Shown here piece by piece: positions 32,316 to 40,083 of a stretch of DNA of 64,000 nucleotides. The DNA lies in contig RSEE01000002.1 of the NCBI GenBank assembly GCA_003971905.1, positions 496,001 through 560,000 on the forward strand, written 5' to 3'. This DNA comes from Moniliella sp. 'wahieum'. Taxonomy: Eukaryota. The notes below the pieces were generated by a model. It searched no databases and had not been told where the DNA came from. It was given only the letters and a program-made list of their open reading frames with translations. The position numbers were made by a program, and so were the translations under genes. Position 1 is the stretch's first letter. Every line of letters starts with the position of its first letter.

Positions 32316-33742
32316 GATAAAGATGCACACTGGTGGTAGCCACAACAGAAGGAACGAATGAAAAGAATGAAGATGGACACAGAAAAGAAGACGGAGTCCA
32401 ATGGGGCAGTTCTGCGGGCTGAAAAGAGACGAGATGAGAGAGTTGATAATGTGGCTGGGAGAAAAGGATGTCCAAACACCATGACTTTTTGAGGCTGGCG
32501 ACCCTTAGCGACGCTAGTGACTAGTGACGAGGCTCTTGCATTTACAGCATTTGGAGACCACGAGCGATGAGATCGGAGATCGGAGAGCCGAACCACACCC
32601 CGTGTTGATGCCCTATTAGCATGATCAACGTTCGACCTATACTATTGTGTGGGCATGTGTGGATCGGTGGCCTCGCATCCCCGCGCGTGTGGCTCTGTTG
32701 GCTGTGCGCGGACTCCCGGCAAAGGGTATCGTGTTCCATCCTCGGCACTTGCGCCGTTCCTTGCTAGGTCATCGATCATCATGAATCGTGTGTTAAACAA
32801 ACGTCAACGTGTTCGCCAACGTGTTAACGCATCAACGTGTTAATCACATGTGTTAATCATGTGTTAATCATTTGTCACACTGATGTCATGCCGTGTTGCC
32901 TCCGGCCTCCAGGACGAACCGCGAGCACTGTTGCTCGTACTAGGCCTGTGCGGAAAATCCCTGTTTCACAAACGCCGCCAGGCATGCAGGGCCTGCTTCC
33001 AGCTTCAGAAGCCGCACAGCTCTGACAAGCTCTGGCAGCTTTCAAAGGGCTTTTCCAACTGTTTACGCGAGCGCATGCAAGCTGCCACAAGCCGTTTCTT
33101 GGCAAGGGGCTGTTAGTGATCAGGCTGATCATCGACACCGCTGAGTCTCAATCTCAGGCCTGAGGCCCTGAGGCCTAGTCAGATGGTGGCAGCCAAACGA
33201 AGAGGACTGAGTACGTTGAGTTACACACTAGCTTTTAGTAGTCCAGTACAGTATATAGTTACTGAGTTACTGACTGAGCCGTTGTGCAAGTAGCGGCAGG
33301 AACAGGCTTGGCGTTGTTCAGTACCAATAGTCACTGGTCACTAGTGCTGTGGCTTGCGCGCTGGCTGAGCTTGCCCTGACAGTAAGTGACTAGTGGCCAG
33401 CGGCTGCTGCTCCCCCTCTCCCCTCGCTCTACTTCATTTGGTGCGCGCGACACATGTGATCTCGCGTTTTGCTCGCTGCGCCCGCCCCGGCAACGCTGTG
33501 GGGGATTAACAACGTGCTCTTTTGTTGAAGAGCGCGCTGAGGCTGAGCGCTGAGCCGCTGAAGTTCAGCGCTGATGCGCTGATGAACGAACACGTTGAAC
33601 GTTGAGTTGAACGGTCTGAGCGCTGAGCGCTCAGGTTGAGCCCGCGGTTGAGTTCTTCCACCCGGTAGCTGATTTTTTGTCTCGTGTGCCTCGTCTCTTC
33701 TGGACTTTTGCCGGGTCTAATAAGGTAACCGGTAACTGGGTA

Positions 33743-33953
33743 TGTCACAAGCCTAGCTAGCGATGCTGGCGATGGTCGATGGAGATGGCATTCAAGAGCT
33801 AAGGAGAGCTAGAGCTATGGGCCTTGATAGGCTCCTGGCCTGGAGGCCAGTGGAAACCCGTGGAAGGGTCGGAACTCACTGCCCCGGTGCACTGTGTGGA
33901 TCGGGCCACGTGTCACTGAAGGCCGATGGGCTCTAGACCACTGGTGGTCAACA
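33743..33953 (-). repeat. 3' LTR (211 bp)
   Basis: Identical to 38803-39014 except one substitution and a 1-bp indel. Preceded on the minus strand by the purine tract AGCGGGGG. Confidence 0.97.
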
Positions 33954-36900
33954 CCCCCGCTGGCCAGAGGTCTCAGTGGCACGATGGAAGGTTGTAACGT
34001 CCTCAAGCTTGAGGCGAGGCAAGTTGGCCAGGAGTGAGACCTTAGTGGCTGGTTTGGTGAGGATGTCGGCCGGGTTCTCGTTTCCAGCAATGTGCGCGAT
34101 TTTGACTTCGCCCGAGTCGACATGCTGGCGTACGTTGTGGTACCGGATGTTCAGCTCACGTAGTTTGCCCGTGCTGCCCACTTTTTCGGCCAAGGCAAGT
34201 GCCGCCATGTTGTCGCAGTACCAGTGTATGGGCTCGTCTGAGGTGATGGCACCGAGCTCCAGTAAGATGTTTTTAACGTAGTTCGCATCAATGAGGCCCT
34301 CATATCCCGCCGTATATTCGGCCGCAGCAGTGTTGGTGACGCTCTTGGGTTGACGCACGCTCCTCCAGGACACTGGAACCCCGTAGACGAAAAGCAGGCA
34401 TCCCGACGTGGAACGCCATTGGTCAGGGTCTCCAGCCAGGTCGGCATCCGTGTATAGCGCGAGAGCGGGTGCGTCAGGCTCGGGTGTTAGTCGGAGACCG
34501 TAGCCCTTGGTACCGTAGAGGTAGCGGAGGAAGTTTGTTGCCGCAGCGCGGTGGGCCTTGGAGGGATCGGCAGTTGCTCGGCTTAGAGCTGAGATGCCGA
34601 ACAGCGCATCAGGGCGGCACATGCGGGCAGCCCACAGCCCAGATCCTACTTTGGCTTGGTAGTCGCGTCTCTCGGCGGGCAGTGCGGGCGGTTCGGGGTC
34701 GGTGCGCGCGGGGATCATCTTGCTGGGGTGGGGGAGGCCCATAACCAGGGGTGGCGGAACCTCATGTTTGGCAATGGATTCCTCAATGAATTTTGGCTGG
34801 CTAAGGTACAGTTTCCCGTTTATGGTGTCGTACTGGCAGCCAAGATGGTAGTGTAGGGGGCCGTTTCCCCGCACCTCGATATGGGTGTTGATCTCAGTGA
34901 GGAAGGAATCGTAGCGTGCGTGAGACGTGCAGGCGATGAGAAGATCGTCGGTGTGCACGGCAAGGAGGACCGTGTCGCCTTTACGGGGTCGGATGAACAA
35001 GCACGGCTCAGCCAGAGATTGTACAAAACCCATGTCTCCGCGGAGCAAGTCACGGATGAATACCGCCCAGTTTGCGCCGGATTGGTGGAGGCCATATAGG
35101 CTTTTCCGGAGACGCCAGACCTTGCCTTTTTCCTCGGGAAAGAATGGGGGTGGGCGGAGGTACACTTTTTCCGTGAGGGGAGCGTTCAAATAGGCAGAGT
35201 GCACATCAGCAGTGAAGAGGTGGAGGCCGAACTTTCCAGCAAGGGCGATAAGGCTGAGGATGGCAGGAGTGCGCACGGCAGGGGCGAATGTTTGTCCCCA
35301 TGTGTCAGCATCCTGCTGGTGGCCCCCGGCAACGAGACGGGCTCGGTAGCGTAGGAAATTTCCGTCCGCGTCCGTTTTGGTGTTGACGCCACAGACCAAT
35401 CAGCAGCTGCGCGTCTGGAGGGGGCGTGACGACTTCGAATGTGCCGTAGCGGGCTAGGGTGTCGATTTCCGTGCGCATCGCCTCCAGCACTGGTTCGAAT
35501 GAGGGGTGTGATTGGAGGCCCTTCATTGTCTTGGGTGCAACAGGTACTCCGTCCTTGGTGAGCTGGATGCGCTCGTGCGGCCCTGGCTCGCTAAGGGCGA
35601 TCATCGCCTTGTATTCAGGCGGATGGAGACCGTCGCTGTACGCGGGCAGGGCAGTGTCGGGCAGTGGGAAGCGTAGGCCGATCGCAGGACTACGACTACC
35701 GTCAGGGAGGGGAACCGGAGGCAGCGCGGCAGCGTGTGCGTGGAAGTCACCATCATGAGGGTCGTCCGCTACGGGGAGCTGTGCCCAGTCAAGGTCAAAA
35801 CGGCGCTGGTGGGTCCGGGCGGGGTACCGTCTGGTGGTGGGGGTGGTTGGATGGGTGTCGTTTTGTCTTGCGATGGTCGCGTCAGTATCAGTGTTGATTC
35901 TCGGTGGTGTGTTGGGATTTGCAACTTCAATTTTGTTCATTTTTTCTTCTCCCTTTTTGGTTTCAGTGTCAGTCATAGTTCTGTCAGGCAGGGGTTGAGC
36001 GGGGAAGCGAGATACGTCAGGCGGAAAGCGGTCGGGGAAAACCTCGTGGTATTGGCGCTGGGTCCACTTGTATGGTTTTGCCCATTGGGATCGGAACGTG
36101 CCCATGGACGGGTCGTACACAGCCCAGCGCCAACCCTTTGTACCTCGACCTGCGTCGTACCCGACGAGCATGGCTTCGACAGCCCGCGGACTGAGCTTAT
36201 GGTCACGTTGGTCCTGGGCCAGGTGAAGGTACGCCAAGGATCCGAAGGCGTGCATTGGCAGCGGTGGGGGTGACCCCTTGTACAGCTCAGCCCGAGATTG
36301 TGTGCCCTGGCGTGGAGATGTCGGTGGCATGAGGTTGTGCGTCCAGCACCCTGCCAGCAAGGCATCCTGCCACCAGTTTGATGTCGGGAGGCCCGAGGCG
36401 ATGATGAGTTGGCGCGCGCGTGTGGTGATTGCCTGGATGGCTCGCTCGGCCACCCCATTTGATTGACTTTGGCCTGGTATGGTGGTTTCCGTCGTGATAC
36501 CTTCGGATTCAAGGAACGGACGGAGTGCGCTGGTGAGCTCGGGGGCATTGTCTGTCTTCAAGATGCGAAGCAGACGGTCCTTTCCGATGCGTTGCTCGCG
36601 GGTGATGAGTTTTTTCAGCTCCGCCGTGGCTTGTCCTTTCGTCTTTAGGGGAACAGCGAAGGTGTAACGGCTCCAGTCATCAACCGCGACCAGGGCGTAT
36701 CCATGTCCCATGCCAGTGATGCGAGGGAGGTCGACTACGTCGGCGTGCAGTACTTCGAAAGGACGTTCCGAAATGCGGCGGCCGTGGCGCGAAGGGTGGC
36801 TGGGCGCTTTGGCCAGAGCTTTTGTGCAGGTGGGACAATGCCAGAAGGGGCGGATGCGTCGGATTTGGGCAGGGCTGACGCGGAGGCTCGCTCGCGCGTT

Positions 36901-37422
36901 GGCGGTTAGTGTCGGGAGTAGGTCTAGCGCGGCGTGGTTGTACTGTTGGTGAACGTACATGACGTGCTCGATGGTGTTGGCTGCGGTGTGTTGGGTGGCG
37001 ACGGCAGCTTTGGCCGCGTGTTCGTTTGTGGGTGTCGGTTTCGGGACGATGTTCAGCTTGTATGAGGAATCCGCGATTTGGTGATATTTGCCATGCTTGT
37101 CATTTAACCAGATACCTTTTCGGTGGGGGGCGAACCAGGATGCGTGGCCTGCGTCACTTATTTGCGCTACGCTCGTGAGATTGCTTGCTATGCCGGGGAC
37201 GTATAGACTGCCGGGTAGGTCTACATGGATACATTTGCCGTCGGTACACTTGATACCGATGCTACATGTTCCGCGTCCACTGGCTTTAATATGTTTTCCA
37301 TCAGCGATTTCGATTGAGCGGTTGCTGGGCTTGAGGGTTTTGAATACCCTGAGATCCTTCCAGATGCTAGGATCCGCGCCCGAGTCGTGACGAGACTGGA
37401 TGTCCTGGTTGCCCGCGAGTTC
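33948..37422 (-). CDS. pol: Copia Pol polyprotein (protease, integrase, reverse transcriptase, RNase H); one frameshift near 35400
   Basis: PR: HDSGA and LYVPGIASNLTSV. IN: HxxxxH...CPTC, LHAD, TDNAPE, NGVAER, GTKGW. RT: YRARLVAGG, DVHSAYL, LRKSLYGLHQS, HTDD. RH: YTDAD, AAEY, CDN, NPADILTK. The stop lies just inside the 3' LTR. Confidence 0.93.
33954..33961 (-). other. Polypurine tract of the retrotransposon
   Basis: Minus-strand AGCGGGGG directly abuts the TGTTGA start of the 3' LTR. Confidence 0.6.
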
Positions 37423-38654
37423 CTATTTGTCAGATAGGGCAAGGTCCACAGACAGGGTCTCCCCTTCGGAGACGTCGTCTTCGGTGGCAATGTGCGCTCG
37501 CGCGGAGCTGTTGCGGTGCCATTTGTTGTTCGAAGGAACCCCGGTGTGGCCGGACGGCTTTCTCGCAAGAGCACCCCCGCTACGGGGAGATGCACCGGCA
37601 GGAGGACCCCCGCTATGCTGCTGGGATCCCGCGCTGTCGTGTTTGCCAGCGCCCGAGTTGGCGGTCCGGGGGTGACGGCCCCGGTACGGAATTCTGTACT
37701 CTGGGTCCGCTGGGATTCTCTCCACGTCTTGCATTGTCTCCGCCAGAGTCATGTGCTCTAGGCGGCGACGGTCACCAGGGTCGCGGAGGGCCCCGACGAG
37801 GATACGGCGGAATTGCTCGTCCGACATCGGTGTGGTTGCGCTGATCCGGTTGCGGAGCGTCCCCATTTCAGATAGGAACTCGCTCCCGCTGCGCCGGTTT
37901 TGGTAGCAGTGGTGAAAGCGACTGGACAATTCATGATACGTCTTGCAGTCGACCGTACCGTATTTGTTTCGCAGGGCACGGAGCAAGTCAGCTGACGTGT
38001 CAACGTTGTCCTGTGCAATAATGGCAGATTGAACGTCGTTCGGGAGGTGGGACCACAGAAGGTTCTGGAGGCGTAGATCGAGGGACGAGTCGTAGTGTGG
38101 TGACGATGGACCGGAGCGAACGATGTCCTTCGCGGCGGGGGGATGCGGTCCAGGATGTTGAGGATGGAGGGCTCCCAGAGCACATATTCGGTGGGGTCGC
38201 GGAAGGCGTCCTTGCGCGTCGCGTTGGTACGCTCGATCTCTTTTGACGCGCGTTTCTCAGCGTGGCGAAGCTCGGCCATGTCCTCACTCGCGGATGCAAG
38301 GGCCTCACGGGTGTTTTGCGGCTTCGTGAATTCAACGGCCAATACATATTTCTCCAACGCGAGGGTGAGCGTGTAGATCCAATTTTCCTTTCCGCCCGGT
38401 GTTTTCTTGCTCTTCGGTCCATACGCCGCCGTGTGTGCATCCGTAGCGAACGAGCGGCATGTGGAGCGGAGATTGTCAGCGCTGGTGGGCTTGAACGCGC
38501 GGGTGCTTGCGAGGAGGTTGTCTCTGACGTCGGTGAGGGCCTGTTGCCAGGTCGGGTCGGAGACAGGGGTGGTGGTCGGTTCGTCGATGTCCTGCGCCTC
38601 TTCGATGACAGAGACTTCGGGAGGAGGGGTGTTTTCTTCCAGTTCGGGGGGCAT
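37423..38654 (-). CDS. gag: Copia Gag (one frameshift near 38140)
   Basis: ATG in GCCACCATG context. Copia-gag-like SADLLRALRNKYG and EFLSEMGTLRNRI segments. Ends at TAG 37425-37423. Confidence 0.8.
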
Positions 38655-38788
38655 GGTGGCTGATTTTTCCTTTGTTTTTTTTTTGAATTGGTTGGTGTGT
38701 GGTGCCGATGGTGGCGTTGGGGTGGTGGTGGTGACGGTGGGCGCCGATGGTGGTGCTGAGTATTGATCCTTTGCGCCAGTGGGGTGCT

Positions 38789-38802
38789 TCAGATTGTAGC
38801 TC
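38789..38802 (-). promoter_or_regulatory. Primer-binding site, putatively complementary to a tRNA-Tyr(GUA) anticodon arm
   Basis: Directly after the 5' LTR the RNA reads GAGCTACAATCTGA, with no TGG start. Its complement TCAGA-TT-GTA-GC-TC has anticodon-arm geometry. Confidence 0.55.
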
Positions 38803-39014
38803 TGTCACAGGCCTAGCTAGCGATGCTGGCGATGGTCGATGGAGATGGCATTCAAGAGCTAAGGAGAGCTAGAGCTATGGGCCTTGATAGGCTCCTGGCC
38901 TGGAGGCCAGTGGAAACCCGTGGAAGGGTCGGAACTCACTGCCCCGGTGCACTGTGTGGATCGGGCCACGTGTCACTGAAGGCCGATGGGCTCTAGACCA
39001 CTGGTGGTCAAACA
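38803..39014 (-). repeat. 5' LTR (212 bp)
   Basis: Near-identical copy of 33743-33953, followed by the TSD GGGTA. Confidence 0.97.
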
Positions 39015-40083
39015 GGGTATATCGAGTACCGTCGGAGAGTTGAACGTTGAGATCTGAGAGAGCACTAGTCGGTACAGACGAGATCGAGATTGTAGCGATG
39101 TCCTGATCTACCTGTCAGGTTACGGAGATCTCAATGGATGTTGTTGACGTTGAGCGCGCTGAAGCTACTACACAGAACGGCAGCGTAGGAAGTCAGTTGG
39201 GGGCGAGAGTGATGGGCGTTGGCGATAGGAAAAGCAGGACGATCGAAGAGAGGGCTACAGAAGGATCAGACGATATTGCTTGCTGGCTTCGGGGCGACCA
39301 GGCCAGTGCTAGTCGAGTCCGCGGTGCATCGGAGGCAAGTGAGGCCGGAAATGTTCCTAGTCGCCCCGACGGAACATGTGCATGATACGAGGGTGGCGCA
39401 AGTGCGAGAAAAGTCTATCCTCCTCGGGGGTGTTCTCTCGATTATCGATCTTAGTATGGTCGACATATGATTTTTGATGCACCCTCACATTTGCGTTTGC
39501 CTGCACGGGGTGCTGCTGGTGACGGGAAATACCGGTCATATTGACACTTTTGGTATAGACATTTGAGTGGTGCGATCCAAATGATGCAAGCTCTATAAGA
39601 ATCTTGCTTGCCTCTAATCGCGTAAGACCCAAGCGAGGAAGACAGATCTGCTTTTTGGGGCCCCGAGCGGCGAGCGTCAGGCGTTACGCGTTGTTGGGAT
39701 GGCTTCCTCCATTCGCCCCCGTTCTCTGGAGCAGGCTAGAGTGAACCTCCCGCAATCGTTTGCTTTGCTTTACCCGTTTCGCCTACAGGCTCTCTTGTCT
39801 GATCGATCTGACCGATGCGATGGACGAGATGAACGCGCAGCGCCCCACCCACTACTTGTGCAGATCGCCTGCCGTGCGCCCAGCTGCTCGGCGCACGTGA
39901 CCGCCCCCCTTCTTTTGAATGTTCAAGCTCCCAGCGGCCTCTCGCGTTGCAATATGAAATTTGAACTATGAGTACAACTGAGTGGAAGCTGCCAGGTGAG
40001 CGGAATGGGAAGCAGCAACTCCGCCTCTCTCCCCATCGCGCACTGTCTCCTTTCGAAGCGCTGCCCACCACCACGCCCCCAAG

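Follow-up and report, generated by a model that had tools for sequence, protein, structure and literature searches.

A copia-type retrotransposon with a primer-binding site complementary to a spliced tRNA-Tyr(GUA) half, and candidate genomic footprints of primer copying

The minus strand of the window (i.e., the whole 64,000-nucleotide stretch of DNA that was analyzed) contains one copia element flanked by long terminal repeats (LTRs) and by the target site duplication (TSD) TACCC. Its primer-binding site (PBS) is complementary, with one mismatch, to the anticodon arm of the spliced host tRNA-Tyr(GUA). We consider it highly probable that a half-molecule of this tRNA primes the element and its relatives, that the mismatch (C opposite A37) is inherited, and that a copy of the primer is occasionally inherited as well.

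All features of the window copy lie on the minus strand. The 5' TSD (TACCC; 39015..39019) precedes a 212-bp 5' LTR (TG...CA; 38803..39014) that differs by one substitution and one gap from the paired 3' LTR (211 bp; 33743..33953). The core PBS (14 nt; 38789..38802) adjoins the 5' LTR. The gag-like region extends from the first ATG to an in-frame stop (37426..38654); it has no Pfam match and contains one frame break at about 38260 to 37760 in this copy. An in-frame TAG in the context TAG-GAACTC (37423..37425) marks the gag/pol boundary, and pol (33948..37422) follows with protease, Pol_BBD, integrase (rve), SH3, RVT_2, and RNase H in the copia order (Pol_BBD, rve, SH3, and RVT_2 by Pfam; protease and RNase H by motifs). 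One frame break interrupts the pol of this copy near 35390. A polypurine tract (PPT)-like sequence, GGCCAGCGGGGG (33954..33965), which is also found in a noncoding partner element described below, precedes the 3' LTR, and the 3' TSD (TACCC; 33738..33742) matches the 5' one. The element thus has the paired direct LTRs, PBS, PPT, and TSD of Ty1/copia elements (Pseudoviridae), as well as their pol order (PR-INT-RT-RH) with an RVT_2-type reverse transcriptase (RT). In two protein searches, all matches other than two proteins (98% and 52%) were at most 35% identical; no match was named Tca2, Ty5, or copia.

The genome contains 20 near-identical copies of this element (family A), a count that, like the other copy counts given here, may include alleles and errors, given that the assembly has many indels and that two haplotypes seem to be present. 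The LTR pairs of family A differ by 0 to 1 substitutions, and a 5-bp TSD follows the CA-ended 3' LTR in 19 of the 20 copies, indicating that the family moved recently. Judging from its sequence, family A is a recently active Ty1/copia retrotransposon. The twentieth copy is internally deleted and does not contain the gag/pol junction. Two copies (L187 and L200) have a common 5' flank and different 3' flanks, and L200 has no matching TSD; this pair represents an allele, a recombinant, or an assembly error. Frame breaks other than the TAG vary between family-A copies, and a database protein that is 95 to 98% identical to the window pol reads through the break near 35390. These breaks are therefore probably assembly errors or private mutations. 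Because tRNA-Tyr genes with near-identical introns and flanks occur in the same order on two pairs of contigs (C5/C27 and C56/C59), the assembly probably holds two haplotypes.

As the initial annotation had described, the 5' LTR ends in TGTGACA and is followed, without a spacer and without a TGG, by GAGCTACAATCTGAAGC (38802 to 38786, minus strand), the reverse complement of which is shaped like a Tyr anticodon arm. This 17-mer has 20 exact matches in the genome, all of them directly after a family-A LTR, and none in a reversed control. The 17-mer itself, which the annotation had expected in a host tRNA, is not found there. Nucleotides (nt) 24 to 40 of the spliced tRNA-Tyr match it at 15 of 17 positions, the exceptions being nt 37 (A in the tRNA, where the site implies G) and nt 26 (G, where the site implies U). 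Beyond the A opposite G26, two more pairs fall within the 17-mer; conservation across families covers 14 of these nt rather than all 17. Over those 14 nt, 13 bases pair with nt 27 to 40 of the spliced tRNA. Mature nt 27 to 40 read TCAGATTGTAACTC and the complement of the site reads TCAGATTGTAGCTC, so the exact host match anticipated for the latter is one base off under standard splicing between nt 37 and 38. The match extends across the tRNA splice junction as far as nt 40.

The tRNA-Tyr genes were identified by an intron-tolerant pattern search of the genome (31 matches; 30 loci fetched). Twenty-eight of the fetched loci are tRNA-Tyr(GUA) genes with introns, and the other two are LTR elements. 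The host therefore has at least 28 such genes, with a single exon sequence and introns of 19 to 26 nt. In all 28, the base after the anticodon is A, and the base after this A varies; 27 of the introns end in G and one in T. For the three genes that were drawn, ARAGORN placed the intron after the base following the anticodon. The introns (L053 to L081) have variable middles, and inspection by eye suggests for many of them a potential hairpin that takes in exon base C38. When run without introns, ARAGORN reported no tRNA in the window or in 22 loci of the 17-mer, and an Rfam tRNA search, in which 63 of 2,133 candidates were scored, found no Tyr among those typed. About 40 equal-scoring 72-nt tRNA matches were spread over many contigs (L030 to L052), and the five that were checked are intronless tRNA-Ala(AGC) genes. 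The window also contains a tRNA isopentenyltransferase gene (PF01715; 16480 to 17892), the product of which is ~35% identical to proteins from Tilletia and 33% identical to those from Meira; among themselves, three Tilletia orthologues are 57 to 62% identical. Placed from this one gene, the host appears to be smut related and outside Tilletia.

At least six further families in the genome have a site that begins with the same tRNA-Tyr complement. The site of family B (RT 70% identical to that of family A) is GAGTTACA, followed by a 5-nt insert and then ATCTG. The site of family D (RT 50%) pairs with nt 40 to 30 (11 nt), has 4 nt looped out, and then pairs with nt 29 to 22 (8 nt). Families C, E, and F, which are older, have the perfect 14-mer, with T at the mismatch position (T-type, as opposed to the C-type of family A). 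An A lies opposite G26 in families A, C, E, and F. The noncoding partner has an unrelated 240-bp LTR, an interior of ~930 bp, and a C-type 14-mer, and it shares only the primer site, the PPT, and the LTR termini with the window element. Its LTR-site junctions number at least 97, and its copies frequently form tandem or inverted arrays (L123 to L179 and L222 to L259). Helenus elements carry a tRNA-derived block with A and B boxes in the LTR; in a comparison of the partner LTR with tRNA-Tyr only, the longest match was 7 nt. A search of metagenome contigs with a 20-nt pattern gave seven matches, which had no similarity to element proteins and 32 to 46% GC and were attributed to chance.

The pairing with tRNA-Tyr was better than expected by chance. 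Thirteen other host tRNA types with introns removed (an incomplete set that lacks tRNA-Cys) paired at only 7 to 9 of the 14 positions, and when the 50 nt next to the LTR were shuffled 500 times, no shuffle paired as well with the tRNA half. Downstream of the core, positions 38766..38788 pair imperfectly with nt 25 to 3 of the tRNA (i.e., the D arm and the 5' acceptor strand), with the A opposite G26, and the extended family-A duplex with nt 1 to 40 has a predicted energy of -34.3 kcal/mol. We assessed this extension by fixing the first 14 nt, shuffling the next 36, and computing the duplex with tRNA nt 1 to 40 (500 shuffles). The observed duplex was reached by 3 shuffles for family A, 1 for family B, 0 for family C, and 1 for family D, and the extension beyond the core was not significant for the partner (249/500), family E (33/500), or family F (94/500). 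When the downstream part of family A was considered alone, 18 of 500 shuffles reached it. The predicted D-arm pairing holds in four of the seven families. Additionally, the LTR contains a 13-nt block that is identical, in the same sense, to tRNA-Tyr nt 1 to 13 (38856..38868, and again at 33796 to 33808). It begins exactly at nt 1 and lies among short AGCTC repeats. A block of this kind occurred in 0 of 300 dinucleotide, 1 of 300 3-mer, and 2 of 300 4-mer shuffles, and it is absent from the LTRs of four other families. The block may be a captured primer end.

Several junctions in the genome have the form expected of copied primers. The 15-mer complementary to tRNA nt 40 to 26, which as a contiguous sequence is absent from the sites of all families examined, occurs twice in the genome, both times after a 3' LTR. 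One occurrence (C1:1548873) lies between the last LTR of a partner tandem, the inner sites of which are C-type, and host DNA; the target site may overlap with this 15-mer at the 15th base. The other (C134:93058) follows a family-C LTR with a PPT and an RNase H-like coding sequence in front of it, and unrelated DNA lies beyond the tail. The base at position 15 of this tail is the C that G26 predicts, in contrast to the A of the family-C site. A 5' LTR with which to compare a TSD is lacking within ~13 kb. At C11:51040, a 13-nt T-type complement is joined to an internal repeat that resembles the complement, as would be expected of a misannealed second strand transfer.

Converted sites were also observed. 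In family B, 1 of 53 sites carries the perfect complement in place of exactly its first 14 nt, with three changes that are all toward the tRNA, and the replaced patch is at most ~19 nt wide. The 97 partner junctions comprised 85 C-type and 9 T-type sites before a normal interior, the 2 T-type cases described above, and 1 8-nt C-type piece. Conversion in the partner was thus 9/94 (9.6%; 95% interval, 4.5 to 17%), far from one half. Among 92 aligned partner copies, only the T/C position and one other (three copies) vary recurrently, and the rest are almost invariant. The nine T-type sites have no linked marker in common, although they might still descend from one T-type sublineage. CpG decay was considered for the C-to-T change and discarded, the context being GCT. 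The tandem at C69 has a T-type site followed by a C-type site, the order predicted if the primer copy reaches the leftmost site alone. No converted site was found in 20 family-A or 30 family-D copies; the difference between 0/20 and 9/94 is not significant (Fisher P = 0.36). The 8-nt C-type piece stands at the end of a lone partner LTR without a TSD (C90:217416); it could reflect truncation of a 5' end or, alternatively, a tail copied from a tRNA that reads as G. The clean primer copies have A37 in four of four cases. These footprints indicate that nt 37 reads as A and that the primer is occasionally inherited.

We propose the following mechanism. The 14 nt after the LTR of the element RNA would anneal to nt 40 to 27 of mature, spliced tRNA-Tyr(GUA), and the D arm would pair loosely farther downstream. 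The tRNA would be cut after nt 40, as suggested by the register of the match and by copia and Ty5, and the resulting 3'-OH would prime minus-strand DNA. Copying of the primer into plus-strand strong-stop DNA would then extend to nt 27 or 26, a length taken from the footprints, and would probably halt at a methylated G26. Dimethylated G26 pairs with A and blocks reverse transcriptase. Among 160 eukaryotic cytosolic tRNAs with an encoded G26, 127 are reported to carry this dimethylation (PMC10275265). The element's own site would usually be kept, as in Ty1. In a few percent of the integrations of this clade, the primer-carrying strand, presumably the first plus-strand strong-stop DNA, would be used, and the site would be converted to the tRNA complement or a tail would be left after the 3' LTR. 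Conversions and tails were seen in the partner and in sister families and not in the 20 family-A copies. We take the C opposite nt 37 to be an inherited trait of family A and the partner rather than a readout of the tRNA, though a small fraction of the tRNA might read as G. Exchanging C for T at site position 4 left the predicted energy of the U5-PBS fold similar (-30.9 versus -31.7 for family A; -26.5 versus -26.7 for the partner), and the folds thus show no structural reason for the C.

A wider reading is possible but tentative. According to it, primer inheritance would be leaky, lying between that of Ty1 (none) and that of retroviruses (about half), the imperfect site would be selected, the LTR block would be captured, and tRNA-Tyr would also recode the UAG. 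The C·A37 mismatch is kept in ~90 to 100% of family-A and partner copies, although each leak corrects toward the tRNA. If selection for an imperfect site is real, it could reflect, for example, escape from silencing by 5' tRNA-Tyr halves or the holding of the U5-PBS fold.

Two other explanations accept tRNA-Tyr as the primer and account differently for the C and T forms. Much of the tRNA-Tyr could have G37, because of splicing at 36/37 or A-to-I editing, in which case the site would pair at 14 of 14 positions and T-type sites would reflect a minority A37 pool. The G that ends the intron in 27 of 28 genes is in keeping with this idea, as a 36/37 junction yields exactly TCAGATTGTAGCTC, and so are the predominance of C in two families with unrelated LTRs and the ambiguous C-type end at C90:217416. 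Moreover, the loop (A36-A37-C38) misfits the A36-A37-A38 rule for i6A as given in part of the modification literature (PMC10275265). We nevertheless regard a G37 primer as quite improbable. The base after the anticodon is A in every gene while its neighbor varies, and one gene ends its intron in T; the four clean primer copies all have A; the site after a family-B or family-D LTR end is never C-type (0/53 and 0/30, respectively); and families C, E, and F carry T. It is also unlikely that the primer is never inherited (i.e., strict Ty1 behavior), with T-type sites and tails arising by mutation, recombination between copackaged elements, or assembly error. T-type sites in several families could donate the 14-mer, the assembly is error prone, with LTR pairs that differ by gaps, and conversions number 0/20 in family A and 0/30 in family D. 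However, the errors are mostly indels, and the same substitution appears nine times in a near-invariant partner. The narrow family-B patch with its three tRNA-directed changes, the tRNA-predicted C at position 15 of the C134 tail, and the absence of the contiguous 15-mer from every family site examined also argue for occasional copying of an A37 primer.

The end and the identity of the primer were likewise considered. Spliced tRNA-Tyr has U41-G42, which could pair with the LTR-terminal CA, and the primer might accordingly end at nt 41 or 42 rather than at nt 40. A primer lying over the CA would presumably cost the right LTR its CA after primer removal, yet 3' LTRs end in CA followed by a 5-bp TSD in 19 of 20 copies; half-tRNA priming is, furthermore, known to start at nt 40, as far as it is described in PMC1181622. 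An end beyond nt 40 therefore seems very improbable. Hardly credible, in our judgment, is priming by the element's own 5' end (as in Tf1) or by the 3' end of another RNA, outcomes that had been named at the outset as refuting a tRNA-Tyr primer. Complementarity to an LTR repeat covers the first 6 nt of the site, and these are paired in a predicted fold. However, only these 6 nt are exact, the best LTR duplex (-12.7 kcal/mol) is weaker than that with the tRNA half (-18.2 kcal/mol), the site is common to families with unrelated LTRs, and the 3' half of tRNA-Tyr reaches only -6.6. Hemivirus-like priming by a cleaved tRNA-Tyr, as first suggested, thus gains support from the host tRNA, the extended pairing, and the footprints for a fragment ending near nt 40, while the exact match was not borne out.

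The in-frame TAG at the gag/pol boundary is present in all 19 family-A copies that hold the junction. In family B, 6 of 13 copies have an open reading frame (ORF) of at least 300 amino acids (aa) that ends at TAG-GAACTC, and the rest have no 300-aa frame at the junction. TAG-GAACTC is common to families A and B (L204, L206, L208, L209, L211, and L220), the RTs of which are 70% identical, and is likely a readthrough or bypass signal. Structure prediction for the 100 nt downstream of the stop gave nothing significant (z = -1.5 for family A and +0.1 for family B; pseudoknots are outside the model). In five of seven family-D copies (L213 to L219), the pol frame overlaps an ORF that terminates at this same TAG, and one family-D copy has a single 1,504-aa frame. 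The overlap reflects either a programmed frameshift or a recurrent assembly error.

The stop and the primer together invite comparison with Tca2 of Candida albicans, which likewise uses an internal tRNA region as a primer and has an in-frame gag/pol stop (PMC4139406, PMC2194720). According to the corresponding sections of these sources, the UGA stop of Tca2 precedes a purine-rich 8-mer and potentially a pseudoknot, the flanks did not direct readthrough in yeast, and the primer is tRNA-Arg(UCU). Here, the stop is a UAG, the next bases are GAACTCGC, and the primer would be tRNA-Tyr. For the Tca2-like lineage that the initial annotation had raised as a possibility, the stop agrees in being conserved (19/19) and disagrees in the codon, and such a lineage is no more than a candidate.

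The element appears to work like a Hemivirus, a genus that the ICTV defines by the use of a short tRNA segment as primer (PMC8515867). As in copia, Ty5, Osser, and 1731, the site adjoins the LTR, the primer would end at nt 40, where Hemivirus priming begins (PMC1181622), and the domains are in copia order (PMC1181622, PMC5371799, and PMC8515867, in the portions that treat these elements). The register (complementarity to nt 40 to 27 without a spacer) and the footprints agree with this assignment at the level of DNA sequence. The differences are that the site matches tRNA-Tyr(GUA) instead of the initiator tRNA-Met of copia, Ty5, and Osser, that the mismatch is fixed, and that a stop separates gag and pol. 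Half-molecule priming by a non-Met tRNA also has a parallel in the plant element Bianca, which is assigned tRNA-Ile and in which a tRNA modification, editing of the anticodon, explains the pairing, as far as PMC6317226 sets it out; in our case, editing of nt 37 is disfavored by the footprints.

The primer itself, which had at first been thought atypical, has a precedent. In rust fungi, according to section 3.6 of PMC10886601 (Kojima 2024), the spliced tRNA-Tyr primes Copia-50_PHord as well as several Helenus families through its anticodon loop, and this usage arose several times. Those hosts belong to a different subphylum from the smut-related host studied here, and the assignments in that section were made by complementarity alone. 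This was the only report of Tyr anticodon-loop priming in the literature searched, although internal tRNA-Arg sites in Candida and the half-tRNA-Ile of Bianca are also in print, at least in the parts of the sources cited above. The tRNA-Tyr primer type is therefore already predicted in print, and what is added here is a genomic record of primer copying and a persistent mismatch. No primer-copy tails of a half-tRNA element were found in the mainly open-access literature covered by our search.

Tests of half-tRNA priming are confined to very few elements (copia and Ty5), and in the others, such primers have been assigned by complementarity alone. The genomic primer copies described here support tRNA-Tyr, point to the spliced A37 form, and would fix the copied length at 14 to 15 nt, and a native system of this kind makes the tRNA-cutting enzyme and the reason for the persistence of an imperfect site testable. 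The natural mismatch also marks how often a copia element inherits its primer. In the portions of the reviews that address this question, Ty1 and Ty3 never do so (PMC5371799, PMC7472051): both strictly keep their own site, and in Ty3, 12 nt of the primer are copied into the first plus-strand strong-stop DNA, which is a dead end (PMC5371799). Retroviruses inherit the primer copy about 50:50, and common sites of mouse endogenous retroviruses are mismatched and revert to perfect ones by primer copying, as far as described in PMC7472051. Compared with these two extremes, the families of this genome show converted sites at 9/94 (partner), 1/53 (family B), 0/20 (family A), and 0/30 (family D).
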